Origin: Candidatus Omnitrophica bacterium UBA6215
GTDB taxonomy: Bacteria; Omnitrophota; Gorgyraeia; Pluralincolimonadales; Pluralincolimonadaceae
Direction: 5' to 3'
Assembly: GCA_002421665.1 (NCBI GenBank)
Contig: DISH01000003.1
Coordinates: forward strand, 39,291-103,290
DNA length: 64,000 bases
Shown one piece after another: positions 36,619-50,644 of this stretch (position 1 is its first letter; the number at the start of each line of letters is the position of its first letter). Position numbers and translations under genes: made by a program. The notes under the pieces are model-generated. The model made no database searches, was not told where the DNA came from, and saw nothing but the letters and a program-made list of their open reading frames with translations.

Positions 36619-36650
36619 TTGACAACATAACAGTTATTATATATACTGTT
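36619..36650 (+). promoter_or_regulatory. Putative sigma70 promoter of marR (TTGACA, 17-nt spacer, TATACT) overlapped by an inverted repeat AACAGT-N10-ACTGTT. The repeat is a candidate MarR operator.
   Basis: Consensus -35 at 36619-36624 and -10 at 36642-36647. A perfect 6-bp inverted repeat lies at 36629-36634 / 36645-36650, inside an AT-rich intergenic region. Confidence 0.4.
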
Positions 36651-36682: not shown

Positions 36683-37138
36683 ATGGCGACAGATATCGAT
36701 AGACTTAATAATGACACAGTTATTAAGATCCTGCGGATCTCGGAAGCATTGGTAAAGACCGCGGATAGGTTTTTCAGTAAATACGGGGTTACTACGACCC
36801 AATATGATGTCCTAGTTATAGTTAATTATTCTGAAAGCAGAATAACTCAGAGCGAGCTTGGAGAGCGCCGTGTAGTTTCGCGCTCAAACATAACCGGGAT
36901 AGTCGACAGACTTGAGAAATTAGGTCTTATAAAAAGAGAATCCGATACGGGCGACCGGAGAATAAAACATCTTGTTGTTACAAAAAAAGGAAAAGATATT
37001 ATTGAAAAAGTCGAAGAAAAATATTTCGATAACCTAAAGCAGATCCTTTGGTTTCTTGATGAAAAGGATAAAGCCGGGATCTTAGAAATAATTGGAAAAA
37101 TAGAAAAGAGCTTGAGGAGAGCCGAAGATATATTATAG
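36683..37138 (+). CDS. MarR-family transcriptional regulator.
   Basis: 151 aa with a winged helix: 'TTTQYDVLVIVNYSESRITQSELGERRVVSRSNITGIVDRLEKLGLIKRESDTGDRRIKHLVVTKKG'. Confidence 0.8.
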   Translation: MATDIDRLNNDTVIKILRISEALVKTADRFFSKYGVTTTQYDVLVIVNYSESRITQSELGERRVVSRSNITGIVDRLEKLGLIKRESDTGDRRIKHLVVTKKGKDIIEKVEEKYFDNLKQILWFLDEKDKAGILEIIGKIEKSLRRAEDIL

Positions 37139-37199: not shown

Positions 37200-37946
37200 A
37201 TGAAAAATTCTATTATTCAAAAGAGACTATTTGCAAGCGACGGTATCGAGATAGCCGTTGAACATTTCAAGGATGGGCATGATTCGGTTGTTGTTATCTG
37301 TCCCGGTTTTTTCAACAGCAAGAAGAATTCGGTAATACGCAGGGCGATAGATATTGTCGGGGACTCGCACGATGTTATAATATTCGATTTCCGCGGTCAC
37401 GGAGAGAGCGGTGGCAAATTTACCTGGACGGCGAAGGAACCGCTGGATCTCAAGGCTGTCCTTGATTACGCGGCCGGTTGCGGTTACAAGAAAATCGGAC
37501 TTATGGGATTTTCCCTTGGTGCCGCGGTTTCCGTAATCGTAGCTCCGGAAAGGCCGGAAATAAAGAGCATGGTCCTGATAAGCGCCCCTTACAGTTTTTG
37601 GGACATCAATTTTAACTTCTGGCAGCCGGAGATGTTCTCAGACCTTAAGGCAAATATGGAATGCAGTTGGGAAGGCAAAGGAGCAAAGATGGACCATGTT
37701 TTCATGGAAAAGAACAAGCCCATAGATAGAATTTCGGCGATAAAGGGCGCCGCGATACTTCTTATACACGGCGCGAAAGACTGGGTGATCAAGGATTATC
37801 ATTCGAAAAAGCTCTTCAATTCCGCTGCCGTATATGAGAAGAGACTGGAGATCTTTAACGACGGGCTCCACGCCGAGAGACTTATCGAGCAATACCCCGA
37901 TAGGATGAAGGACCTTGTTTCCGGCTGGTTCAGGGATACCCTATAA
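37200..37946 (+). CDS. Alpha/beta-fold hydrolase (dienelactone hydrolase / S9-like).
   Basis: GxSxG nucleophile elbow 'GFSLGAAV'. The 'HGAKD' region suggests a catalytic His/Asp. Confidence 0.7.
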   Translation: MKNSIIQKRLFASDGIEIAVEHFKDGHDSVVVICPGFFNSKKNSVIRRAIDIVGDSHDVIIFDFRGHGESGGKFTWTAKEPLDLKAVLDYAAGCGYKKIGLMGFSLGAAVSVIVAPERPEIKSMVLISAPYSFWDINFNFWQPEMFSDLKANMECSWEGKGAKMDHVFMEKNKPIDRISAIKGAAILLIHGAKDWVIKDYHSKKLFNSAAVYEKRLEIFNDGLHAERLIEQYPDRMKDLVSGWFRDTL

Positions 37947-37960
37947 TAAGGAGAACGGTT

Positions 37961-38698
37961 ATGAAATGGTTATTTATGTCATTGACACAATTGGCCGCGT
38001 CAGTAACTATGTACCTGATAGGTACTGTGTTCTTCGGGGTAGCCCTTATCCCGGGGGTAGCTATCTTTTTCAGCGCGCTGGAACATTCCCAGGGCCTTCC
38101 CGTTTTAGCCAGGTATGCCGTGCTCGGCCTTTCGCTCGCGGGAGGTTATTTCCTCTTCGGACTTACGCTCATATTCCTGGTAGGCATGGTTCGCATGGTG
38201 CTTCGCATACGCCTGAAGGAGGGCAATCACCCGATCTTCTCGGCGGAAGCCTTCAAGTGGGCATTTGTAAGCGCCCTATACCTGCTGGTCAATTTTACGT
38301 TCATAGATTTTATCCTGCTTACGCCGTTCTCTAACATATTTTTCAGGATGCTTGGCGTAAAACTCGGCAAGAACGTCCAGATCAATTCCAAGTTCATCTT
38401 CGACGCTACACTGCTCGAGATCGGGGACAATACGGTCGTAGGCGGCGGCGCAATAATCATCGGCCATATTGTAGAGCGCGGCACCTTGAAACTCAGGAAG
38501 GTCAGGATAGGCAAGAACGTTACCATAGGCTCGCATTCAACCGTGATGCCGGGCTGCGAAATAGGCGATAACGCCATAATAGGCGCGAGCGCCGTATTGC
38601 GCAAGGGAACCAAAGTTGAACCCAGGGACATCTATTATGGTATACCGGCCGAATCGGTAAAGAACAGACATAAAGGAGAAAGAGATGCCCAGGCCTGA
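37961..38698 (+). CDS. Membrane-anchored hexapeptide-repeat (left-handed beta-helix) acyltransferase.
   Basis: About 4 N-terminal TM helices followed by LbH repeats ('IGDNTVVGGGAIIIGH...IGKNVTIGSHSTVMPGCEIGDNAIIGASAVL'). Confidence 0.6.
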   Translation: MKWLFMSLTQLAASVTMYLIGTVFFGVALIPGVAIFFSALEHSQGLPVLARYAVLGLSLAGGYFLFGLTLIFLVGMVRMVLRIRLKEGNHPIFSAEAFKWAFVSALYLLVNFTFIDFILLTPFSNIFFRMLGVKLGKNVQINSKFIFDATLLEIGDNTVVGGGAIIIGHIVERGTLKLRKVRIGKNVTIGSHSTVMPGCEIGDNAIIGASAVLRKGTKVEPRDIYYGIPAESVKNRHKGERDAQA

Positions 38699-41312
38699 TT
38701 TCGATAATTTTTCCATACATGAGCTGATGGAATCCATAAACAAACGGTGGTTCTCTAAAACCGCTTTGCAGATAAAGACGAGAGAAGGCTGGAACAGGCT
38801 TTCCTATGTTCCGCTGGGAGAACGGGCGGTTGATATATCTTCGAGTCTTCTTAAGCTTGGAATGGAAAAGGGAGACCGCGCCGCGGTCCTGTCGGAATCA
38901 AGGCCGGAATGGGGTGCCGCGCTTTTTGGAATAATATCCTGCGGCGGTATCGTTGTACCTATGGATGTCAAACTCAGCGAGAAGGAGATGGCTTTCATCC
39001 TCAAGGACAGCGGGGCCAGGTTCATCTTTGTCTCGGAGAAGTATCTTCCCGTGGTCGACAGTATAAAAGCAGCCCTCCCGGAACTAAGGCATATTTTTGC
39101 CATTGATGATACCGACAGGCAGGACCTTATAAAGACTAAAGAACTCAAGATGAGACCGGGTGAAAAGAAATACCTCCCCCTTACCATGGATGACACCGCC
39201 GTCATAGTTTATACTTCCGGTACTACGGGAGTGGCGAAGGGTGTCGAGATAACTTATAAGAACCTGATATTCCAGGCCCGCGAGCTCAACAGGCTTGTCC
39301 GTTATAACGAGTCCGACAATTTCCTTTCAATGCTTCCGCTTAACCATATGCTTGAGTTGACCGGAGGGTTCCTGTCACCGCTATATGTTGGTGCTACCGT
39401 GACGTATTGCGACAGCCTTAAACCGTCGAATATCATGGCCATGATGGCCGAGACGCGTACGACAGCCATGATAACGGTCCCTCTCATACTTAAAATGTTC
39501 CACGACGGCATAATGAAGAAGGCGCAGTCCCGGCCGTTCGTTAGCAGGAAGGCGTTCTTTACCTGCCTGCATCTGTGCAGGTTCCTGCTCAGGTTCAGGG
39601 TAAAGGCCGGCAGGTTATTCTTCGGCCGAATACACAGGCAATTCGGCGGCCGGTTGAGATGTTTTGTTTCGGGAGGCGCCCCCCTTGATACCACCGTAGA
39701 GATGGATTTTAACGCCATGGGTTTTACCATATTGCAGGGTTACGGCCTTACCGAGACCTCGCCTGTCATCGCAGTGAACACTTTTGAGGAATTGAAGTAC
39801 GGCTCTGTAGGCAAGCCCCTGCCGGGAGTCGAGGTTAAGCTCATAAGGCCTGATGGCACCTCGGGGGACGAAGGCGAGATAGTCACGCGCGGCGATCATG
39901 TCATGAAGGGGTATTTCAGGAACCCCGAGAAAACCGCCGAAGTAATCAAGGACGGATGGCTCTATACCGGGGATATCGGTAAATTTGATAAAGACGGTTT
40001 TCTTTACATAACCGGTCGCATCAGGAACCTTATTGTCCTTGGCGGCGGAAAGAAAGTCTTTCCCGAGGAGATAGAGGAAGTGATGTCGGAGAGCCCTTAT
40101 ATTAAGGAAATATGCGTCCTCGGCAGGAAAGCGCAATCCGGGCTTAAGGCCGGCACCGAGGAAGTATTTGCCGTGATCGTCCCGAACCTAGAGATGTTCA
40201 AGGCGGGCGCAAAAGGCGACGAAGAAGCAGCAAGAAAAAAGATAAGCGAAGAGATCCTGCGGCTTGGCTGCAACCTCGCCGAATACAAGAAGATAGCAGG
40301 TTTTATGCTCTATTTCGATGAGCTGCCTAAGACCTCGACAAGGAAGGTCAAGAGGGCGGAGGTGGGGAAGATGCTGGAAGAGACCGGCGATAACCCTAAT
40401 CCCGTTAGCGCTATCGAGGCCCAATTAGGGAAAAGGATGGATATCTCCGGCAATCTTTCCTCGCCCCTGTCCGATATAGGTATAGATTCCATGGAAAAAG
40501 TCGAGATAGTTTGTGCGTTAGAGAGAGAGTATAATTGCACTATACCGGAGGAAGAATGGCAAAAGGCAATTTCGTTAAGTGACCTTATCCGGCTGGCTTT
40601 TGCAAACAAGGGTTTAAAAGGCAGAAATACCGGTGATGGCAATCCTGCGGCAGAAGCAAGGACAGTACGTATCCGGTCGAGGATTTTTCTGCCGAGCAGG
40701 CTACTTTTTGCATTGATCCTCAAAATATTTTTTAGGACCTACCTTAAGGTCAGGGTTAAGGGAAAGGAAAATTTGCCTGCAAAGGGTCCGTTTATACTAG
40801 CGGCCAACCATTCGAGCCATCTTGACCAGCCTCTTTTATTCAACTTGTTTTCGATGGCAAGAATCAAGGACGTGTATTCTCCCGCGGCGGCGGATTATTT
40901 TTATCGCAATATAATCGTGCGCATGTTTGTTGCTATATCATTGAACGCTTTCCCGTTCGAAAGAGAAGGTAATTTTACGAAGGGCTTGAAGATCTGCAAA
41001 GAATTGATTAATATGGACAAATCGTTAATACTATTTCCCGAAGGAACGAGATCCCTTGACGGTAAAATCGGTAATTTTAGGCCGGGAGTAGGCTTGCTTT
41101 CGATCGAATCCGGCGTTCCAGTTATTCCAGTTTATATTAAAGGCGCCCACCAGGCCCTTAGCAAGGGGCGCTTATTTATTAAGCCGGGAACCGTTGAAAT
41201 GATTATTGGTTCTCCCGTTAGTCCTGAGGGGATAGAAGATAACTATAATGGCTATAGGGTATTTGCCGGGACGCTAAAAACGAAGGTAGAAGAATTAAGC
41301 CGGGAGCATTAA
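38685..41312 (+). CDS. Tri-domain fatty acyl-AMP ligase / acyl carrier protein / lysophospholipid (PlsC-type) acyltransferase fusion. It is ElbD-like but lacks a reductase domain.
   Basis: AMP-binding motif 'YTSGTTGVAKGV'. ACP phosphopantetheine site 'LSDIGIDSMEKVEIV'. LPLAT motifs 'AANHSSHLD' (HX4D) and 'FPEGTRS'. Confidence 0.75.
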   Translation: MPRPDFDNFSIHELMESINKRWFSKTALQIKTREGWNRLSYVPLGERAVDISSSLLKLGMEKGDRAAVLSESRPEWGAALFGIISCGGIVVPMDVKLSEKEMAFILKDSGARFIFVSEKYLPVVDSIKAALPELRHIFAIDDTDRQDLIKTKELKMRPGEKKYLPLTMDDTAVIVYTSGTTGVAKGVEITYKNLIFQARELNRLVRYNESDNFLSMLPLNHMLELTGGFLSPLYVGATVTYCDSLKPSNIMAMMAETRTTAMITVPLILKMFHDGIMKKAQSRPFVSRKAFFTCLHLCRFLLRFRVKAGRLFFGRIHRQFGGRLRCFVSGGAPLDTTVEMDFNAMGFTILQGYGLTETSPVIAVNTFEELKYGSVGKPLPGVEVKLIRPDGTSGDEGEIVTRGDHVMKGYFRNPEKTAEVIKDGWLYTGDIGKFDKDGFLYITGRIRNLIVLGGGKKVFPEEIEEVMSESPYIKEICVLGRKAQSGLKAGTEEVFAVIVPNLEMFKAGAKGDEEAARKKISEEILRLGCNLAEYKKIAGFMLYFDELPKTSTRKVKRAEVGKMLEETGDNPNPVSAIEAQLGKRMDISGNLSSPLSDIGIDSMEKVEIVCALEREYNCTIPEEEWQKAISLSDLIRLAFANKGLKGRNTGDGNPAAEARTVRIRSRIFLPSRLLFALILKIFFRTYLKVRVKGKENLPAKGPFILAANHSSHLDQPLLFNLFSMARIKDVYSPAAADYFYRNIIVRMFVAISLNAFPFEREGNFTKGLKICKELINMDKSLILFPEGTRSLDGKIGNFRPGVGLLSIESGVPVIPVYIKGAHQALSKGRLFIKPGTVEMIIGSPVSPEGIEDNYNGYRVFAGTLKTKVEELSREH

Positions 41313-41328
41313 AAAGAGGAAAAATAAA

Positions 41329-41946
41329 ATGCCGCTTCCTTCAGTTTATGATTTTAAACCGCGCTTTCAAAGATTATTGCATCCGGTCTCGGATTGGCTG
41401 GCAAAAAAGCGCGTAACCGCAAATATGGTTACATATTCCGCCTTATTTGGTTCAATGTTAGTTGGAGCAGGAATAGCGATATTCGGGCCGCGTTCAATCC
41501 GCGTCCTTTTGGTACTGCCTGTTTGGTTATTGATCAGGATGGCTTTGAACGCGATTGACGGGATGATGGCACGCGAATATAAGATGGTCTCGAATTTCGG
41601 GTTTGTATTAAATGAAGCAGGGGACGTATTATCCGATGTCTTTTTGTATCTTCCGCTTGCTTTCTTGGCCAAAGATGCATTATTACCCGTTTATGTTTTT
41701 TGTATCGGAGCAATATTGACTGAATTCTGCGGGATTATTCCGAAGACGCTCGGTTTTGGCAGGCGCTACGACGGGCCGATGGGAAAGAGCGACAGGGCTT
41801 TTTGGATAGGCTTACTTTCTATCGTCGCATCGGTATACCCCATGACAATAATATGGTGGAAATATGTATTTATTGTTATGGCATTGATGGAGATAGTTAC
41901 ATGCATAAAGAGAATAAATAACGGGTTGAAGGAGGAGAGCAGATGA
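41329..41946 (+). CDS. CDP-alcohol phosphatidyltransferase family protein.
   Basis: Signature 'DGMMAREYKMVSNFGFVLNEAGDVLSD' (D-G-x2-A-R-x8-G-x3-D-x3-D). Multi-TM. Confidence 0.7.
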   Translation: MPLPSVYDFKPRFQRLLHPVSDWLAKKRVTANMVTYSALFGSMLVGAGIAIFGPRSIRVLLVLPVWLLIRMALNAIDGMMAREYKMVSNFGFVLNEAGDVLSDVFLYLPLAFLAKDALLPVYVFCIGAILTEFCGIIPKTLGFGRRYDGPMGKSDRAFWIGLLSIVASVYPMTIIWWKYVFIVMALMEIVTCIKRINNGLKEESR

Positions 41947-42893
41947 TCGACTGGATCGCCGGAGTCTCACCCACAGGAAAAGGCATATTACTTGTCTTGG
42001 CTTTTCTTGCGTTAATAAGCTTTTTGGTATGGATCCTTGCCATGTCAAAAAGAGACAGCAATGAACTGGTTGCCAGGACAAGATCGTGGTGGGTTATGGC
42101 GGCGATTTTTATGATAGCAGTTGTTTCCGGGAACAGGCACTTTTCCGTAATGTTCTTCTGCTTTTTAAGTTTGTGGGCTACAAAAGAATATCTTTCGGTT
42201 GTAGATATCCCAATCTGGCACAGACCGGTCTTGATCTGGAGCTATGTTATAATAGTGATGCAGTATTATTGGATCGCTATTGATTGGTATGGCATGTTTC
42301 TGGTATTCATTCCCATATTCGGGTTCCTGTTTATTTCAACAAGGGTAATGTTGACCAACGAGCCGGATTATTTTCTGGGTTCATCGGCAAAGATATTATG
42401 GGGTCTTCTCGCTTTTGGACTTGGGCTTAGTCACCTTGGCTACCTTATTAATATACCCGGTTACCATGGTTTGCGAATTGACGGAAGGTCTTTACTGCTT
42501 TTTCTTGTCGTGACGACGGAATTTAACGATGTTGCCCAATATTTTTGGGGCAAACTTTTCGGAAAGCATAAGATCCTCCCGGTTATCAGTCCGAAAAAGA
42601 CCTGGGAAGGGTTTATCGGCGGGGTCGTTACCGCCATAGCTGTTTGCTTTCTTTTTAAGTTTTTGACCCCCTTTAAAGCAGTTTATGAGATAGTTTTTGT
42701 GTCCTTAGCCATTTCGATCAGCGGGTTTTTTGGGGATGTCGTGATGTCGGCTGTAAAGAGAGATATGAGCGTGAAGGATTTTGGAACCGCAATACCAGGG
42801 CACGGGGGTATTTTAGACCGGCTGGATTCAATATCCTTTACAGCCCCGATATTCTTCCATATTATACGTTATTGGTATTGGCCGTCTTGCTGA
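41943..42893 (+). CDS. CTP-dependent lipid cytidylyltransferase of the CdsA/CarS family (phosphatidate cytidylyltransferase-like).
   Basis: 'SPKKTWEGFIGGV' matches the CdsA signature (SPxKTxEG). Multi-TM. It overlaps the preceding gene by 4 nt. Confidence 0.7.
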   Translation: MIDWIAGVSPTGKGILLVLAFLALISFLVWILAMSKRDSNELVARTRSWWVMAAIFMIAVVSGNRHFSVMFFCFLSLWATKEYLSVVDIPIWHRPVLIWSYVIIVMQYYWIAIDWYGMFLVFIPIFGFLFISTRVMLTNEPDYFLGSSAKILWGLLAFGLGLSHLGYLINIPGYHGLRIDGRSLLLFLVVTTEFNDVAQYFWGKLFGKHKILPVISPKKTWEGFIGGVVTAIAVCFLFKFLTPFKAVYEIVFVSLAISISGFFGDVVMSAVKRDMSVKDFGTAIPGHGGILDRLDSISFTAPIFFHIIRYWYWPSC

Positions 42894-42913
42894 GACGGCC
42901 GCGGAGAAAGAAG

Positions 42914-44395
42914 ATGATTAAAGATGAGTTTTTGTTGTCTAGTGTAGGGGACAGGGAGGCCGCATGCGCGGTCGCGCGGAAGTCGGCGATAAATATCCCG
43001 GCTTATAGGGAGTATCTAAGGAGAAATCAGTTTTCCGGCAAGATATCGCGTTCAAATTTTGAAGAGCTCCCCCTTACGGATAAAGAAAATTACCTTATGA
43101 AAGCCCCGTATTTTTCATTATTGCCGCCGGAGAATTTGGATGATGTACACTTTGTGTTTAAAAGCTCGGGTTCGTCAGGTAAGTCTTTCTATTGGCCTCA
43201 ACTAAAGCAGCAATACAAATTATTTGACCTGCTGTTTGAAGATACCCTTAGCAAGAATTTTTCAATCCGCAAGAAAAGGACCGCGATAATCGTCGGGTTA
43301 TCATTGGGGAGCTGGATCGGCGGCGACCTTATTTCGTGGGCCGCGAAGAACGTTGCGTTGCGTTCGAATTACTCCCTTACTGTCTTCAGTCCCGGGAACC
43401 AGCATGAAGAGATACTCGAGATAATTAACGGAATAAACAGGAAGGTTGACCAGATAATACTTTTTGTATGTCCTTCTACGATTGGACATCTTGCCTTGCT
43501 TGCGGAAGAGAAAAATTTTTCTGGCATATTTAACAAGTTGCGATTTCTGGTTATTGGAGAGCCATTCAGCGAAAATTTTAGATTACGTCTTCGGGCAAAG
43601 TGCAAAGTAAAGCCTCCGGAAGTTGTCCTGACGTCCGTATACGGGTCTGCCGATACGGGGATAATAGGGATCGAATCAAATGCTGTCGCATTCTTCAGGG
43701 AGCTTCTATCGAGATACGGGCAATTGCGCAGGTATTACGGTTTTGAGAATTCTTTGCCTAATTTTTTCAACCTCTCCGTAAAAGAGGCTTATATTGAAAT
43801 GGTAAAAGGAGAGCTGGTTTTTACGGCTTGGCAAGGGTTACCGCTTATGCGGTATAATCTGCACGATAACGGCAGCCTCATCGATTGGAACACCGTAAAA
43901 ACGGCGTTAAAAGACATTAATCTCGACGGAGAGTCCGAGAAATTAAAGAACCATATAATCAAGGATAGATCAAATCCTATTGTTATCGCCGTAGGCGGAC
44001 GAAGCGACGGCACTATATATTTATGCGGTACCAACATTTCAGAATCAATGCTTAGCAATGCCATAAACGACAAATCGTTGCAAAAGACCGTAACGGGGCA
44101 TTTTTATGTAAGCGTCTTGGAACGTAATGGCAGGCAGCAGTTGAAATGGGAAATAGAGCTTAAGCCCGGGATTCGTCCTGATAAAAAGACCGAAAGCGTT
44201 ATCTATGCTAAGCTGATTGAATTGCTGGGAAAGCTCCAGCCGGAGTTTATGGCCGATTACAATAGCATATATTCAAAATGGGACGATAACGAATCTGCGA
44301 GGATATTCCAATTTAAATTTTATCCTTGGCCGCAGTTATCAAGAAGACCTGATTCAGCGAAACACAGGATTATTGCATTGACAGAGGATAAATAA
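42914..44395 (+). CDS. PaaK-like / GH3-like adenylate-forming enzyme (phenylacetate-CoA ligase / F390 synthetase family), divergent.
   Basis: 'PLTDKENYL' and the P-loop-like 'FKSSGSSGKSFYW' are present. Start chosen at 'MIKDEF', after the CdsA-like stop. Confidence 0.6.
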   Translation: MIKDEFLLSSVGDREAACAVARKSAINIPAYREYLRRNQFSGKISRSNFEELPLTDKENYLMKAPYFSLLPPENLDDVHFVFKSSGSSGKSFYWPQLKQQYKLFDLLFEDTLSKNFSIRKKRTAIIVGLSLGSWIGGDLISWAAKNVALRSNYSLTVFSPGNQHEEILEIINGINRKVDQIILFVCPSTIGHLALLAEEKNFSGIFNKLRFLVIGEPFSENFRLRLRAKCKVKPPEVVLTSVYGSADTGIIGIESNAVAFFRELLSRYGQLRRYYGFENSLPNFFNLSVKEAYIEMVKGELVFTAWQGLPLMRYNLHDNGSLIDWNTVKTALKDINLDGESEKLKNHIIKDRSNPIVIAVGGRSDGTIYLCGTNISESMLSNAINDKSLQKTVTGHFYVSVLERNGRQQLKWEIELKPGIRPDKKTESVIYAKLIELLGKLQPEFMADYNSIYSKWDDNESARIFQFKFYPWPQLSRRPDSAKHRIIALTEDK

Positions 44396-44396
44396 T

Positions 44397-44993
44397 ATGA
44401 AAAGCAAAGGAATCGGGATATTTGAAAGGGTTTTTTCGTCGCGAGTTTCCTTAATCATATCGTTTTTATGGGGCTTCGCGGAGGCGACCTTATTTTTTAT
44501 TATTCCCGATGTTTTTTTAGGAGCGGTAGCTTTATTTTCGCCAATGTGTGGAATATTGTGCTGTATTATGAGTATCCTGGGGGCTATGCTTGGCGGAGGC
44601 CTTATGTATCTTTTATCTTGCAGGATCCCTCAAACTATGCTTGCCTTGCTAACAAAAGTTCCGGGAATTACAGATTCTATGATAACGCAGGTGGGTATCA
44701 ATTACAAGATGTATGGCCTTAAGTCCATTTTTTTGGCCCCGTGGGCCGGAGTTCCTTACAAGATTTACGCCGTTCAAGCCGGTATTCATGGTATAGACCG
44801 TACGGCTTTTATTTTGGCCACTATTCCGGCCCGTTTAGAGCGGTTTATTTTGGTTATTGTGGTCATGATGTTTCTGGGTTATCGATTTAGAAGGTCTGTT
44901 TTGCGCAGGCCCGGATATTGGATGACCGCGTACGCTGTTTTCTGGATAGCGTGCTACGTGGCATATGCAATTTATTTAAATGGCAGGACTTAA
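44397..44993 (+). CDS. Hypothetical integral membrane protein (5-6 TM) embedded in the lipid cluster.
   Basis: Hydrophobic helices throughout. It starts 1 nt after the preceding stop. Confidence 0.4.
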   Translation: MKSKGIGIFERVFSSRVSLIISFLWGFAEATLFFIIPDVFLGAVALFSPMCGILCCIMSILGAMLGGGLMYLLSCRIPQTMLALLTKVPGITDSMITQVGINYKMYGLKSIFLAPWAGVPYKIYAVQAGIHGIDRTAFILATIPARLERFILVIVVMMFLGYRFRRSVLRRPGYWMTAYAVFWIACYVAYAIYLNGRT

Positions 44994-45010
44994 TTGAATA
45001 TTGGAAATCA

Positions 45011-46324
45011 ATGCGTTCACTAAACTTTTCTGAATCGGTTATGTTAGGCTTACGCTTTTATCCTGCAATACGCAGCATAAGCCGTATGCCATTTGCTTCC
45101 AGGGATTCCATCGAAGGATATCAGCTGTCCAGGATTAAAAAACTTGTTACATTTGCTTACGATAATGTGCCATTTTACAGGAAGAAATATGATGAAGCGG
45201 GTATCCGTCCCGGAGACATAAGGACATTTCATGATTTTAAACGCTTACCGACGGTGACAAAAAAGGATATTATAGAAAATTATCCGCATAACATACTTGC
45301 TTCCGGTACCGATCTAAACCGTTGCATAATATCCAGGAGTTCAGGTTCTTCCGGAGCCATTGTAAATGTTGTCTATGGAACAGGGGCCCTTATCGAATAC
45401 ATATTGGCAGGTTTTAGGATTTATTCTATGGTGATGGATTACAAGCCTTGGCATAAACAGGTTTATATCTATACTTCTCCGTACCCGGTTAACGGGGTAT
45501 TTGGCGCTTATCGTTTATATTTTATACCGACAGTCAACAAGGTTAATGATACGATAGCTGAGCTAAGGAGGATCAGGCCGGATCTTTTGGTTTGTTATCC
45601 GTCCCACTTGCGTCAATTGAGCCACAGCATTTCTCGCGAAGACCTAAAGTTGATAAAACCTCTTGCTATATCAGTGAATTCTGAAATGTCAACTCAGGGG
45701 GAAAGGGATGAACTCGCCGGTTTTTTTGGGTGCGGGGTTTATGATGAATATTCAACCGAGGAATTGACGAGGGTTGCTTCGCAGTGTAAGGCTAAAAATT
45801 ATCATATATTTGAGGATATTAATTATATTGAAATATTGAATGATCGGGGGGCGGATGCAAAAGATGGGGAAGTCGGAGAGATAGTAGGGACAAATCTGCA
45901 TAATTTTACCATGCCCTTTATAAGATACAAGCAGTCCGATATGGCATCCGTATCTTCTGGGGCCTGTTCATGCGGAAGAAACTTTAAGTTATTAAACGGG
46001 TTAAAGGGCAGAAAAAACGATGAATTTATTCTGCCCGGAGGAAAAACCCTTTCTTCCGGGTTTCTGCTGGATGCTTCTTATAATTTGATCCTTGAATTTG
46101 AGAATGCAATAAAAGATTATTGTATTATTCAAGAATCGAGGAATGATATAGTAATGGAGATTATCGCAGGGGATAGCTATTCGGAAGAAAAAAGGGTGCG
46201 GATGGAAGACGCTCTCAGTAAGATAATAGGCGAAGGAGTCGCCGTTAAGGTTGCAAGGGTAGAAGAGCTTTACAAGACAAAATCAGGCAAGCAAAATCCA
46301 ATAATTTCTAAAGTCTCCAGATAA
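45011..46324 (+). CDS. PaaK-like adenylate-forming enzyme (phenylacetate-CoA ligase / CapK / F390 synthetase family).
   Basis: 'FHDFKRLPTVTKKDIIENYP' and 'SRSSGSSGAIVNV' are PaaK-family N-domain motifs. Start chosen at 'MRSLNF'. Confidence 0.7.
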   Translation: MRSLNFSESVMLGLRFYPAIRSISRMPFASRDSIEGYQLSRIKKLVTFAYDNVPFYRKKYDEAGIRPGDIRTFHDFKRLPTVTKKDIIENYPHNILASGTDLNRCIISRSSGSSGAIVNVVYGTGALIEYILAGFRIYSMVMDYKPWHKQVYIYTSPYPVNGVFGAYRLYFIPTVNKVNDTIAELRRIRPDLLVCYPSHLRQLSHSISREDLKLIKPLAISVNSEMSTQGERDELAGFFGCGVYDEYSTEELTRVASQCKAKNYHIFEDINYIEILNDRGADAKDGEVGEIVGTNLHNFTMPFIRYKQSDMASVSSGACSCGRNFKLLNGLKGRKNDEFILPGGKTLSSGFLLDASYNLILEFENAIKDYCIIQESRNDIVMEIIAGDSYSEEKRVRMEDALSKIIGEGVAVKVARVEELYKTKSGKQNPIISKVSR

Positions 46325-46357: not shown

Positions 46358-49300
46358 ATGAAAACTTGCGGTATCTGCGTCGGGGCATCCAACCTGACGT
46401 CGGTGGAGTTGCACAAGGACAAGGAAGGCCTGCGTGTCGGCAGGGTTATTAGTTTGCCGCACGAGGGAAATATATTCGGCTCGCTGGAACAGGCCGTGCG
46501 CAGGGCGCAGGAGGATGGCTACGGGAGTATCGCCGTGACCGGGCGCAAGGTAGGCGCCTCAATCTCGCTGCCGAGATTATCGGAACCGGAAGCGGTAGAG
46601 GAGGCCCTCAAGTTCCTGAACGCCGGTAACAGGAAAAGATACGATGCGGTAGTGAGCGTCGGCGCGGAACTTTTCATAGCTTATCTGCTGGACAGGGAGG
46701 GCAATATCTCCGGGGTCAGGACGCTTAACAAATGCGCGTCCGGGACCGGGGAATTCTTCATGCAGCAGCTCAGGAGGATGAATATATCCCTGGACGATGT
46801 CGTCAAGCTCGCCTCGTCAGAAAAATCATACAGGCTTTCGAGCAGGTGCTCGGTCTTTTGTAAAAGCGACTGTACCCACGCCCTTAACAAGGGCCAGGAT
46901 ATAAGCGAGATTCTTTCCGGTCTCTGCGAAATGATGTCCAGAAAGGTCATGGAACTTCTGGTCAACCTCCCAAAAGAGAATGTCATGCTCATAGGAGGGG
47001 TTGCCCTTAACCCCCGTGTGGTTAATTTTCTCAGGAAGGACATCCGTTCCGTACATGTCCCTAAAGAAGCCGCTTATTTCGAGGCGCTTGGCGCAGCATT
47101 GTGGGCGATGGAACATAATACCGATACGACGAACACGAAACTGCTGCAGGACAAACGCCATCCGTCGAGATTCTCGAACCTGCCTCCGCTTAAGTCCGCT
47201 CTCCCGCTGGTTGATTTCAAGGGCGCGTGGGAAAAGAAGGAATTTTCCGAAGGAGACGTATGCATAATCGGATTGGATGTGGGGTCAACGACGACGAAAG
47301 CCGTCTTGATGAGGGAGCGCGACGATGCCGTTATCGATTCTATATATCTCAGGACCAACGGCAACCCAGTTGAGGCTTCCAGGAATTGTTACAGGGCCCT
47401 GCAGAAAAATCTTAAGAAGGACGTAAAGATAACAGGCATAGGAGTCACCGGTTCAGGCAGGCATATAGCTGCCCTGCACGCCATGACGGACGGCGTGATA
47501 AATGAGATCATCGCCCACGCGCGCGCCGCGGCGTATTTCGACCCCGAGGTTGATACGATATTCGAGATAGGCGGCCAGGACGCGAAATATACGCATATAG
47601 AGAATATGGTAGCCTGCGATTACGCGATGAACGAGGCTTGTTCGGCCGGTACGGGCTCATTCCTTGAGGAGTCATGCAAAGAGACCCTCGGGGTGGAATT
47701 AAAAGACATTGAACCTCAGGCGATGAAAGGCGAGAACCCGCCCAACTTCAATGACCAGTGCGCCGCTTTTATAAGCAGCGATATCAAGACCGCCTCATAC
47801 GAGGGGCTCAAGAAAGAGGATATCGTCGCCGGGCTCGTATATTCCATCTGCATGAACTACAGTAACCGCGTAAAAGGAAACAGGCTTGTAGGCGACAAAG
47901 TGTTGATGCAAGGCGGGGTCTGCTACAACAAGGCGGTTCCCTTTGCTATGGCTTCTCTCTTGGGGAAAAAGATAGTGGTTCCTCCGGAGCCCGGCCTCAT
48001 GGGGGCCTTCGGCGTAGCGCTTGAGGTCAAGGACAAGATAAAGAACGGCCTGCTCAAAAGAGGCGAATACCGGCTTGCCGATCTTATAGGGAGAGAAGTT
48101 AAATACTGTGACAGCTTCAGGTGTAAGGGCGGCGCCGAGAAATGCGATCGGGGGTGCAGTATCCTGCGCATAGAGATAGAGGGTAAGATATATCTTTTCG
48201 GAGGTTCATGCAACAGGTATTACAATATCAACCATTCGGTAGCGGTAGAGGACGGCTTGCTAAATCTTGTCAAAGTGCGCCAAGAACAGCTTTTTAACGT
48301 GGGAGGGGCGCCGGTACCGCGTCCGGGCGCCAAGAGCGTAGGTATCAGCAAATCGTTCCTGTCGCATACTTTCTTCCCGCTGTACCACGATTTCTTCTCG
48401 GCCCTTGGGATGAAGGTCGTGGTTTCCGATACCGTTACGGATTACGGCATTCAGCACAAAAGGGCGGCTTTTTGTTACCCGGCCGAAATAGCCCACGGAA
48501 TGTTCCACAACCTCATCGAGAAAGAGCTTGATTATATATTCCTGCCCCAGGTGCTTGAGATAAAATCCAAGAGGGCGCCGCAGTCAAGGAAAGAACAGCA
48601 GTCCACGTGCGTCATCCTGCAAAGCGAGCCGTATTACCTGCGCGATACGTTCAAGAAAGCGAATAAAGGAAAGCTACTGATACCGGTGGTTGATTTTTCA
48701 AATGGTATACGGAAGGCTCAGGATACTTTTGTCGAGATGGCCGTAAAAATGAGTTTCAACGGCGGGGACGCGGCAACGGCTTACAAGGCCGCGTGCAGGA
48801 AACAGGAGGATTTTACCTCCAGGATGAAACAATACGGCAGGGGATGTCTCGAAGAACTCAGAAAGGACCCGTCAAGGACAGCGGTAGTCCTCCTGGGCAG
48901 GCCGTATAACAGTTTCGCGGCCGAAGCGAACATGGCGATACCGGACAAGTTTTCTTCCCGCGGGGTTACCATAATACCGTTTGACTGCCTTCCTTATGAA
49001 GGCGAATCCGATGACAGGAACATGTATTGGGCGAGCGGCCAGATGATACTTAAGGCCGCGAGGTTCGTAAAGAAGCACCCGCAGCTATACGCCGTTTTCG
49101 TTACTAATTTCAGTTGCGGCCCGGATTCCTTTATCGTGGGACAGGTAAGGGATATGATGGACGAAAAACCAATGCTTATCCTCGAGATAGACAGCCATAC
49201 CGCGGATGCCGGGGTCAATACCAGGATAGAAGCGTTCCTCGATATTGTGGAAAGGTCGAGGCGGGTGGCAGGCATCCCGCAAAAAGCCGCGACGCATTTC

Positions 49301-50644
49301 ATTCCGGCGCGCTGCATAAGCCACAAGAAGAGGTTATGGATAATCTCCTCCGAAGGGGAACGGCTTAAGATAAACGATAAGAAGGTCAAATTATTGATAC
49401 CTCCTATGGGCAAGATGGGCCCGGAAGCGCTCGCGGCGGTCTTTAAGACCGCGGGGATAAACGCGGTGCCGCTCGAGCCGTCGGACGGTGTATCCCTTAA
49501 GCACGGCAGGTCGAATACGACCTGTAAGGAATGCCTGCCGCTCATACTCAGCACGGGGAGCCTTATGAAGTACCTTGAGCGGGACAAGAGCGGGGACGTC
49601 CTTGTGTATTTCATGCCTTCTACCGGAGGCAATTGCAGGTTCGGACAGTATAGCGTATTCTTCAATAATCTAATCAGGAAGAAGCGCATCAGGAACCTCG
49701 CCGTATATTCAATGGATACCCAGAACAGCTACCTGGGCATGGGGAACGCTTTTAATATACTGGTCCTGAAGACCGCGCTTATATACGACGCGATGTATGA
49801 CATAAAGAACGCCTTGAAAGCGCTGGCGAAGGACCGTCAGGAGGCCCTTGGAATATTCGAGGAAGAATGGCATTCCATACTCGCGTGCATAGCCGGCGGG
49901 GGCAAAGGGCTTTACCGGGTGCTCGGCAAGTCCATGGACAGGCTCAGGAATGTGCCTTTAAAGAGGGCGTTCGCCGAGGCGAATAAGGTAGCCATAATGG
50001 GCGAGATATACGTCAGGCGCGATGATTATTGCTGCAATCCGCTTATCGACAGGCTCGCCCAGAAAGAGATAGTGGCCAAGACCGCGCCTATGCTCGAATG
50101 GTTCTATTATGTCGACTACCTCGTCAAGAACAACCTTGTCGAGGCGGATCTGGGAGTATCGGGCAGGGTCGAGTTCTTCATAAAGACGTTTTTGCAGAGC
50201 AGTTATGAGAGGAAGATAAAGGGCATATTGGAGCGTTCCGGGCTTTATGAGAACGAAGAGATAAACATCAGAAAGATCATGGATACCGGAAAAAAGTTTT
50301 TTGACGAGCAGCTTACCGGCGAGTCGATAGTAGTCGTGGGTTCTGCGATGAACGAGATAGCCGAGCATGTCTCAGGGGTTATAAACGTGGGCCCGTTCGC
50401 GTGCCTACCTACCAGGATAATAGAATCCATACTAAACGGTAATATGAATATGGCTTCCAAGAGGAGGTTGTCCGGGAAGGATCTTGAGCACCTTAAGGGG
50501 ACGGAGGACCTTCCTTTTCTTTCGGTCGAGATTGACGGGGCGCCCTTCCCGCCGCTGATCGAGGCCAAGATAGAGGCCTTTTGCCTGCAGAGCAAGCGCC
50601 TTCATGCCAAAATGTCTTATCTTAATTTACGCCATAAAAAATAA
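46358..50644 (+). CDS. 1428-aa fusion of two tandem BadF/BadG/BcrA/HgdC-type activase ATPase domains with a 2-hydroxyacyl-CoA dehydratase (HgdAB/DUF2229)-like C-terminal region. It is a candidate fused plasmalogen-synthase-like (PlsA/PlsR family) enzyme.
   Basis: Two actin-fold activase signatures ('CGICVGASNLTS' and 'CIIGLDVGSTTTKAVL...IFEIGGQDAKY'). A Cys cluster 'CDSFRCKGGAEKCDRGC' is present. The long C-terminal region has HAD-component-like blocks ('LEIDSHTADAGVNTRIEAF'). Confidence 0.7.
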   Translation: MKTCGICVGASNLTSVELHKDKEGLRVGRVISLPHEGNIFGSLEQAVRRAQEDGYGSIAVTGRKVGASISLPRLSEPEAVEEALKFLNAGNRKRYDAVVSVGAELFIAYLLDREGNISGVRTLNKCASGTGEFFMQQLRRMNISLDDVVKLASSEKSYRLSSRCSVFCKSDCTHALNKGQDISEILSGLCEMMSRKVMELLVNLPKENVMLIGGVALNPRVVNFLRKDIRSVHVPKEAAYFEALGAALWAMEHNTDTTNTKLLQDKRHPSRFSNLPPLKSALPLVDFKGAWEKKEFSEGDVCIIGLDVGSTTTKAVLMRERDDAVIDSIYLRTNGNPVEASRNCYRALQKNLKKDVKITGIGVTGSGRHIAALHAMTDGVINEIIAHARAAAYFDPEVDTIFEIGGQDAKYTHIENMVACDYAMNEACSAGTGSFLEESCKETLGVELKDIEPQAMKGENPPNFNDQCAAFISSDIKTASYEGLKKEDIVAGLVYSICMNYSNRVKGNRLVGDKVLMQGGVCYNKAVPFAMASLLGKKIVVPPEPGLMGAFGVALEVKDKIKNGLLKRGEYRLADLIGREVKYCDSFRCKGGAEKCDRGCSILRIEIEGKIYLFGGSCNRYYNINHSVAVEDGLLNLVKVRQEQLFNVGGAPVPRPGAKSVGISKSFLSHTFFPLYHDFFSALGMKVVVSDTVTDYGIQHKRAAFCYPAEIAHGMFHNLIEKELDYIFLPQVLEIKSKRAPQSRKEQQSTCVILQSEPYYLRDTFKKANKGKLLIPVVDFSNGIRKAQDTFVEMAVKMSFNGGDAATAYKAACRKQEDFTSRMKQYGRGCLEELRKDPSRTAVVLLGRPYNSFAAEANMAIPDKFSSRGVTIIPFDCLPYEGESDDRNMYWASGQMILKAARFVKKHPQLYAVFVTNFSCGPDSFIVGQVRDMMDEKPMLILEIDSHTADAGVNTRIEAFLDIVERSRRVAGIPQKAATHFIPARCISHKKRLWIISSEGERLKINDKKVKLLIPPMGKMGPEALAAVFKTAGINAVPLEPSDGVSLKHGRSNTTCKECLPLILSTGSLMKYLERDKSGDVLVYFMPSTGGNCRFGQYSVFFNNLIRKKRIRNLAVYSMDTQNSYLGMGNAFNILVLKTALIYDAMYDIKNALKALAKDRQEALGIFEEEWHSILACIAGGGKGLYRVLGKSMDRLRNVPLKRAFAEANKVAIMGEIYVRRDDYCCNPLIDRLAQKEIVAKTAPMLEWFYYVDYLVKNNLVEADLGVSGRVEFFIKTFLQSSYERKIKGILERSGLYENEEINIRKIMDTGKKFFDEQLTGESIVVVGSAMNEIAEHVSGVINVGPFACLPTRIIESILNGNMNMASKRRLSGKDLEHLKGTEDLPFLSVEIDGAPFPPLIEAKIEAFCLQSKRLHAKMSYLNLRHKK

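Follow-up and report, generated by a model that had tools for sequence, protein, structure and literature searches.

The closest described relatives of the genes treated here are the Arc1 cluster of Pseudomonas aeruginosa (arc1A-F, PA2541-PA2536) and the ynbABCD genes of Escherichia coli K-12. Five of the six Arc1 genes are predicted to encode phospholipid enzymes, duplicating the core machinery; the cluster (PA2541-36) is induced through Gac/Rsm and protects the cells when Burkholderia thailandensis attacks by type VI secretion, and a single effector was not identified (PMC8926400). According to a CRISPRi study, resistance to the lipase effectors TseL and Tle1 is complete only with arc1A (PMC12663445). 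The E. coli protein YnbB has been described as a paralogue of CdsA, its overproduction increases the glycolipid MPIase, and it is no substitute for CdsA in bulk phospholipid synthesis (PMC6362211, PMC11413397). YnbA was listed once in a cyclic di-GMP (c-di-GMP) screen, without functional insight, and YnbD failed to rescue strains deficient in C55 pyrophosphate (C55-PP) phosphatase or in phosphatidylglycerol phosphate (PGP) phosphatase (PMC7413402). Here we describe a gene pair, probably ynbA-ynbB, in a 64,000-nucleotide (nt) stretch of Candidatus Omnitrophica bacterium UBA6215 (GCA_002421665.1, contig DISH01000003.1, positions 39,291-103,290). This whole stretch is referred to as the window, and the positions given below are counted from its first nucleotide.

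The gene pair and the housekeeping pathway

The first gene of the pair (41329-41946, plus strand) encodes a YnbA-type CDP-alcohol phosphotransferase of 205 amino acids (aa), and the second (41943-42893, plus strand) a YnbB-type CDP-diacylglycerol synthase paralogue of 316 aa; both open reading frames (ORFs) are real at these coordinates. The first protein is 42% identical to E. coli YnbA over 193 residues, i.e. at full length (E 3e-45), and its motif and predicted fold, discussed below, agree with the assignment. The second shares 43% identity with E. coli YnbB, likewise at full length (residues 16-310, E 5e-69), and is closer to it than to the CdsA of its own genome, with which it shares 36% identity over the C-terminal 144 residues only (168-310). 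The N-terminal half is common with E. coli YnbB and distinct from housekeeping CdsA. Furthermore, the second protein matches PF01148 (215 bits), carries the CdsA signature SAVKRDMSVKDFGTAIPGHGGILDRLD and matches the solved Thermotoga CdsA (4q2g, E 2.8e-19).

As stated in the initial annotation, the two genes overlap by 4 nt, which were read directly as ATGA (41943-41946). The order suggested by its title, with the CdsA-like gene ahead of the transferase, is reversed in the DNA, where the transferase comes first. At the coupling junction (41930-41946, plus strand) an AGGAGG at 41930-41935 was read 7 nt ahead of the ATG of the YnbB-type gene (41943-41945), and the TGA of the first gene occupies 41944-41946. 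The same order and close stop/start coupling are found in E. coli, where ynbA-ynbB (b1408-b1409) are the first two genes of ynbABCD.

The window cluster also has a YnbA/YnbB/PlsC core in common with P. aeruginosa Arc1. The link to Arc1 is supported by the published PA2541 primer, which encodes MISVYQL, as found at the N-terminal end of YnbA homologues from Pseudomonas, and by the Pseudomonas loci in our sample, with the six-gene order YnbA-YnbC-YnbD-small ORF-PlsC-YnbB. In our view the pair is probably orthologous to ynbA-ynbB of E. coli, the genes at the core of Arc1, and forms an accessory, horizontally mobile phospholipid module beside the housekeeping pathway. Arc1 as published, a set of specialised phospholipid genes beside a housekeeping set, fits this situation. 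The defence phenotype and the Gac/Rsm control are known from Pseudomonas only, whereas the window cluster is headed by a MarR gene, lacks YnbC and YnbD and belongs to an uncultured host of anaerobe habitats. Making a CDP-lipid and then transferring it to an acceptor is the most economical reading of the pair; the initial annotation had arrived at this reading of a dedicated head-group module, and had missed both the membership in the known ynbA-ynbB/Arc1 family and the altered catalytic motif.

The family is large: at E<=0.001 the first gene has over 7,900 matching proteins in the database, and at least 593 stretches match it in a species-representative collection with one genome per species. 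Xenorhabdus, Yersinia, Haemophilus, Pseudomonas, Neisseria, Campylobacter, Capnocytophaga, a staphylococcal relative, Acidobacteriota, Planctomycetota, Verrucomicrobiota and Omnitrophota are among the matches listed. Neighbourhoods were surveyed at 80 loci from named genomes, with 10-kb flanks. Within these flanks of YnbA, 69 of the 80 had a YnbB-type gene and 44 a stand-alone PlsC-like gene (~213 residues), while YnbC was present at 33-41 loci and YnbD at 27-28. Natural fusions of YnbA+YnbB, YnbA+PlsC, PlsC+YnbB+YnbA and YnbA+YnbC occur, those with YnbC being the commonest, which argues that YnbA, YnbB, PlsC and YnbC act in one pathway. In a quick tree of the family, the window protein falls into a well-supported clade of 12 members from the PVC-group, Acidobacteriota and Omnitrophota, and none of their clusters contains YnbC or YnbD.

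A profile search of the host genome (1.6 Mb, 7 contigs, 93% complete) gave four PF01066 and two PF01148 matches in total. The second CdsA is encoded within a canonical uppS-cdsA-dxr operon. The other PF01066 proteins are a pgsA equivalog (145.5 bits), a pgsA-like protein (107 bits) and a protein resembling archaetidylinositol-phosphate synthase (AIPS) and phosphatidylinositol-phosphate synthase (PIPS), all three with the canonical four-Asp motif. These other cdsA and transferase copies have open frames and intact motifs and are not pseudogenes. The AIPS/PIPS-like paralogue has 221 aa (L003:1258-1923, minus strand, equal to G000:C2 near 142887-143225) and scores 66 and 64 bits with the AIPS and PIPS models, under their cut-offs.

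Since a separate housekeeping cdsA and pgsA are present, the pair is accessory, and its description as second-copy style in the initial annotation was borne out by comparison with the cdsA and pgsA homologues elsewhere in the genome: the pair are not the only copies. That the two genes are the housekeeping cdsA and phosphatidyltransferase of the organism, for which family membership alone speaks, is virtually untenable. It is contradicted by the canonical uppS-cdsA-dxr operon and the pgsA equivalog, as well as by the atypical composition of the pair. In addition, a search of 30 relatives with the window protein gave a single match, to a divergent form of 32% identity, and nothing in the other 29.

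Composition, cassette exchange and mobility

The pair lies within a tightly packed, co-directional row of genes on the plus strand, at ~36.6-50.6 kb of the window. In order, the row consists of a MarR-family regulator (36683-37138), an alpha/beta hydrolase (37200-37946), a membrane-anchored hexapeptide acyltransferase (37961-38698), an AMP-binding/PP-binding/Acyltransferase fusion protein (38685-41312), the YnbA/YnbB pair, a first PaaK-like adenylating enzyme (42914-44395), a YqaA/DedA family membrane protein (44397-44993), a second PaaK-like enzyme (45011-46324) and a BcrAD/DUF2229 protein (46358-50644). The block from YnbA and YnbB over the first PaaK-like and the YqaA/DedA-like gene to the second PaaK-like gene has a GC content of 0.41-0.44, with 0.39-0.49 at third codon positions (GC3). 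In the hexapeptide, fusion and BcrAD/DUF2229 genes on either side, GC is 0.49-0.52 and GC3 0.57-0.66.

The gene order is identical in a 77%-identical relative (L090). A same-genus sister genome (G002) retains a NUDIX gene and the MarR, hydrolase, hexapeptide transferase, fusion and BcrAD/DUF2229 genes at 62-85% identity. Between these retained flanks (L097, G002:C10), its YnbA/YnbB pair is only 33% and 30% identical to that of the window, no PaaK-like or YqaA-like genes are found, and the BcrAD/DUF2229 gene follows directly after the divergent ynbB. The fusion protein itself is ~80% identical to its G002 counterpart over residues 1-525 and 39-65% over residues 526-875. This fall in identity after about residue 525 places the left edge of the swapped segment within the fusion gene (window ~40260-46324). 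Judged from this identity profile, the carrier and PlsC domains travel together with YnbA and YnbB. The YnbA-like protein of G002 (L089:1450-2088, minus strand, equal to G002:C10) keeps the two Asn residues described below, with SR in place of AR and GGGKPDR in place of GPMGKSDR, and may represent a second subfamily.

The distribution of the family is patchy, with YnbA in only 3 of the 200 other Omnitrophota genomes sampled and one divergent form among the 30 relatives. Plasmids carry the family as well, 31 plasmid records having a YnbA-family gene whose product is 40-47% identical to that of the window. Examples of these plasmids are NZ_CP066768.1 (19 kb, Burkholderia ambifaria), NZ_CP053574.1, NZ_OK264410.1 and NZ_CP027341.1. 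The DNA is present in hydrocarbon, oil-facility and riverine metagenomes. The pair is probably a horizontally acquired spare copy.

Catalytic motif, fold and acceptor of the YnbA-type enzyme

The window transferase carries the motif NxxDGxxAR-x8-GxxxNxxxDxxxD plus G-P-x-G-K-S-D-R, and E. coli YnbA has the corresponding NxxDG...N...D...D and GP(M/F)GKSDR motifs in common with it. The canonical four-Asp signature, D-x2-D-G-x2-A-R-x8-G-x3-D-x3-D, is departed from in its first and third Asp, which are N74 and N95. Among 200 aligned family sequences, the Asn-Asp-Asn-Asp-Asp pattern was present in 194 of the 195 that were readable at these positions, and GKSDR in 198 of the 200.

In PgsA1 of Mycobacterium tuberculosis (Mtb), Mg-1 is bound by D68, D71 and D89 and Mg-2 by D89 and D93, D93 being the proposed base; R155 and R195 bind the phosphate of inositol phosphate, and R94 is conserved in enzymes using inositol phosphate (PMC6506517). 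Profile alignment places N74/D77/N95/D99 of the window protein on D68/D71/D89/D93, and K153/R156/R195 on R152/R155/R195. R156 and R195, the equivalents of R155 and R195, are invariant in the family alignment, and the equivalent of R94 is Val100. By this alignment the YnbA family keeps the proposed base and one metal ligand, whereas two ligand positions, the bridging one among them, are occupied by amides. Asn for Asp at two metal ligands predicts a metal site with fewer negative charges.

An AlphaFold2 (AF2) model, with a mean predicted local distance difference test (pLDDT) of 88.6, contains a juxtamembrane helix and six transmembrane helices (helices at 10-26, 31-52, 57-83, 89-112, 115-140, 153-169 and 171-204). 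Foldseek matched it at probability 1.00 to 19 chains of CDP-alcohol phosphotransferases (CDP-AP). The closest solved folds were the PIP synthases, with template modelling (TM) scores of 0.72-0.76, followed by DIPPS/AF2299; PgsA reached 0.55 and phosphatidylserine synthase about 0.4. For comparison with the characterised transferases, rankings by hidden Markov model (HMM), PDB profile and fold were used. The YnbA family forms a branch of its own among the CDP-alcohol phosphotransferases, and its fold is closest to the PIP synthases. The best profile and fold matches of the window protein are PIP synthases (Mtb PgsA1, 6h53/6h59; Renibacterium PIPS, 5d91/5d92) and archaetidylinositol-phosphate synthases. 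It matches the PIP synthases in size (~200 residues), in its six transmembrane helices and in the phosphate-binding R155 and R195, but has Asn, Asn and Val at their D68, D89 and R94.

Going by the conserved Arg pair, the acceptor would be a small molecule that carries a phosphate or another anionic group. Inositol phosphate is argued against by the missing R94 and by the lack of a match to inositol-1-phosphate synthase (PF01658) in the 93%-complete host genome. The window transferase scored 75 and 38 bits with the NCBIfam PIPS and AIPS models, against cut-offs of 180 and 170. On these three grounds, a reading of the product as an inositol lipid, prompted by the AIPS/PIPS matches, was rejected.

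A universal phosphorylated metabolite is another candidate acceptor. YnbA could use sn-glycerol-3-phosphate to form PGP, so that the pair would constitute a parallel, inducible phosphatidylglycerol route and serve membrane repair from lysolipids and free fatty acids. The retained phosphate-binding Arg residues of the acceptor pocket suit this, four Arc1 genes have been described as homologous to phosphatidylglycerol-synthesis enzymes (Ting et al. 2022, PMC8926400), and no acceptor-synthesis gene recurs in the surveyed clusters, as would be expected for such a metabolite. Lipase-related partners do recur (alpha/beta hydrolase, patatin, LplT-Aas-like), and arc1A aids against lipase effectors (PMC12663445). 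However, the window transferase reached only 16.5 bits with the PgsA equivalog model TIGR00560 (cut-off 109.1), where the true pgsA of the genome scored 145.5, and the PgsA fold is a weaker match than those of the PIP synthases. The invariant Asn/Asn motif separates the family from the two PgsA-like proteins of the genome, and E. coli YnbD gave no rescue of a PGP-phosphatase-deficient strain (PMC7413402). Taken together, we regard a phosphatidylglycerol route as conceivable but unlikely.

It is highly doubtful, though in keeping with an anionic acceptor, that YnbA joins phosphatidyl to the phosphate of a sugar-1-phosphate. The product would then be a pyrophosphate-linked glycolipid primer such as N-acetylglucosamine (GlcNAc)-PP-diacylglycerol, the first MPIase intermediate. 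YnbB has been implicated in MPIase synthesis, with compound I formed from CDP-diacylglycerol and GlcNAc-phosphate (PMC6362211, PMC11413397), ynbA and ynbB are coupled across phyla, and an anionic nucleophile would fit both a less negative metal site (two Asn) and a basic pocket. On the other hand, the published model gives the compound I step to CdsA and YnbB themselves, the effects of a ynbB knockout were marginal (PMC6362211), and the surveyed clusters have neither a glycosyltransferase nor a sugar-nucleotide gene as a recurrent member. MPIase is moreover essential in E. coli, yet ynbA is as patchy in the phylum as described above.

The assignment of the pair to the ynbAB/Arc1 module, which we prefer to these alternatives, has several points against it. 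The PF01066 score of the window transferase, 21.0 bits, lies just under the cut-off of 22 bits, which E. coli YnbA passes with 39.2 bits. Asn replaces two of the four motif Asp, among them the one that bridges both Mg in Mtb PgsA1 (PMC6506517), so that canonical chemistry is not assured. E. coli ynbABCD goes on with YnbC (a hydrolase plus Methyltransf_20) and YnbD (PAP2 plus a dual-specificity phosphatase), whereas neither family had a match in the window cluster or anywhere in the 93%-complete genome; with YnbC and YnbD of the E. coli/Arc1 type missing, the lipid made may be another one than in those clusters. What the PlsC domain acts on, and on which lipid backbone the product is built, are assumptions, and a literature search yielded no enzyme activity or product for any YnbA-family protein.

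Partner genes and proposed pathway

In place of YnbC and YnbD, and unlike E. coli, the window pair is accompanied by the ligase/carrier/PlsC fusion, the membrane hexapeptide acyltransferase, the YqaA/DedA-like protein and the two PaaK-like enzymes. Its position between an acyl-loading enzyme and adenylating enzymes had been noted in the initial annotation and was confirmed, with the fusion upstream and the two PaaK-superfamily proteins downstream. In other Omnitrophota, the clusters contain MarR, an Aas-type enzyme, an alpha/beta hydrolase, a hexapeptide transferase, YnbA, YnbB, PlsC and a YqaA-like protein. In Bacteroidota clusters (L035:11618-13619; L057, L065), a patatin-like phospholipase and a short-chain dehydrogenase stand in place of the PlsC-like gene.

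The fusion protein (875 aa) is, by its Pfam domains, a fatty-acid adenylating enzyme, a carrier and a PlsC-type acyltransferase in one chain. The carrier serine lies in GIDS at residue 602, the HX4D motif (NHSSHLD) at 709 and FPEGTR at 784; the catalytic motifs of its carrier and PlsC domains are intact, as are those of the YnbB-type protein. The stand-alone PlsC-like gene near ynbAB in 44 loci encodes a homologue of the PlsC domain of the fusion. In the LplT-Aas system (E. coli Aas; P. aeruginosa PA3267), an adenylating and a PlsC-type acyltransferase activity likewise return free fatty acids to lysolipids. The window fusion differs in its order of ligase, carrier and acyltransferase, in its in-built carrier domain and in having no transporter domain. 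Proteins of the Aas order, PlsC followed by AMP-binding (1140-1180 aa; 741 aa in L078), adjoin ynbAB in L010/L095, L029, L055 and L078, from Omnitrophota, Methyloligellaceae and Sulfurimonadaceae, and are probably LplT-Aas-like. Their occurrence beside ynbAB in several lineages suggests that fatty-acid re-activation is a recurrent partner of the module.

The upstream end of the row is formed by the MarR-family gene (PF12802/PF01047), which leads the cluster in L090, G002, G179 and G074 as well. A promoter-like TTGACA-17-TATACT (36619-36647, plus strand) precedes it, matches 11 of 12 consensus positions and, going by this consensus match alone, is probably the start of the operon. No gene of the row has a lower GC than the MarR gene (0.379, GC3 0.375), whose protein is only 62-69% identical to the counterparts in close relatives, as against 83-98% for their neighbouring genes. 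The alpha/beta hydrolase, of the Hydrolase_4 type, is a recurrent ynbAB partner in four other Omnitrophota genomes and matches YnbC weakly (E 8e-4). The adjacent acyltransferase is a left-handed beta-helix (Hexapep) protein whose N-terminal third is hydrophobic, and it too recurs with ynbAB in other Omnitrophota. Its top NCBIfam match, at 98 bits, is the Pls/PosA nonribosomal peptide synthetase (NRPS) terminal domain, i.e. the membrane-embedded C-terminal domain. As it resembles this synthetase domain rather than a soluble acetyltransferase, it may draw its acyl group from a carrier domain.

The membrane protein between the two PaaK-like genes (198 aa) had no match in Pfam or NCBIfam scans. 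It was assigned to the YqaA/DedA (VTT-domain) family by language-model features, with a score of 0.96 to YqaA clusters, and by predicted structure, with a TM of 0.95 to DedA clusters; a form fused to PlsC exists. Single-linkage clustering had suggested that this ORF is a YnbC fragment, which direct comparison ruled out. Homologues follow ynbAB-plsC in 9 loci, and the protein is a candidate lipid flippase or scramblase.

From these assignments a pathway of four steps can be proposed. The fusion would adenylate a free fatty acid and load it onto its own carrier domain, from which the PlsC domain would esterify a lysophosphatidate-type acceptor. The YnbB-type enzyme would turn the resulting phosphatidate and CTP into CDP-diacylglycerol, as its intact CdsA motifs and the published work on YnbB suggest. 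YnbA, going by fold and motifs, would then pass the phosphatidyl group to an anionic acceptor other than inositol phosphate, with release of CMP. Finally, the YqaA/DedA-like protein may carry the product across the membrane.

Of the two adenylating enzymes, the first (493 aa) is a divergent member of the PaaK/F390-synthetase superfamily with a weak PaaK match (E 5.9e-5). Its start at ATG 42914 is favoured by a 493-aa orthologue in L090 and by a GGAG 7 nt upstream. The second, PaaK/CapK-like and of 437 aa from ATG 45011, scored 138 bits with the DVU_1553-family and 126-129 bits with PaaK models, all under cut-offs, and CapK_C was detected on its L090 orthologue. The starts of the longest ORFs, TTG 42872 and TTG 44918, are probably wrong, as the two ATG starts fit the L090 orthologues and the local ribosome-binding sequences.

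The initial annotation had proposed an aromatic or amino acid as the substrate that these two enzymes activate, for decoration of the head group installed by the pair. Both genes lie within the low-GC cassette of ynbAB and are conserved with it in L090, and the same operon holds a membrane hexapeptide acyltransferase able to use an activated acid. However, PaaK-like genes stand beside ynbAB only in the host and in this relative. None was found with ynbAB in the 80 other loci, nor in four other Omnitrophota ynbAB clusters including that of the sister genome, though the hydrolase and hexapeptide genes are kept there, so that conservation lends the proposal no support. The substrates are not readable from the sequence, and the family scores are all far under the cut-offs. 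Decoration of the head group by the PaaK-like enzymes thus seems unlikely.

The final gene of the row, outside the low-GC cassette and with a GC of 0.522, encodes a protein of 1428 aa with two BcrAD_BadFG domains and DUF2229. It enters into a further proposal, which we hold to be quite improbable. The YnbA family would be a mechanistically distinct branch, its charge-reduced metal site coupling phosphatidyl to an anionic nucleophile and giving an undescribed lipid class. Within the cassette, this lipid would be tailored by the two PaaK-type ligases and the hexapeptide acyltransferase and exported by the YqaA/DedA-type flippase, possibly in an ether form made via BcrAD/DUF2229.

What is known here is the ynbAB/Arc1 system, and what is new is the unusual gene neighbourhood in an uncultured member of the Omnitrophota. 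The module is widespread and also plasmid-borne, and in Pseudomonas it helps the cells to survive type VI attack. With an uncultured host, the window itself is no convenient test system. The description of the altered catalytic motif of the family and of the acceptor classes that are unlikely narrows the biochemical search without solving it. Furthermore, the window contributes a variant of the module with different partners, and evidence that the PlsC domain, YnbA and YnbB move and are exchanged together.

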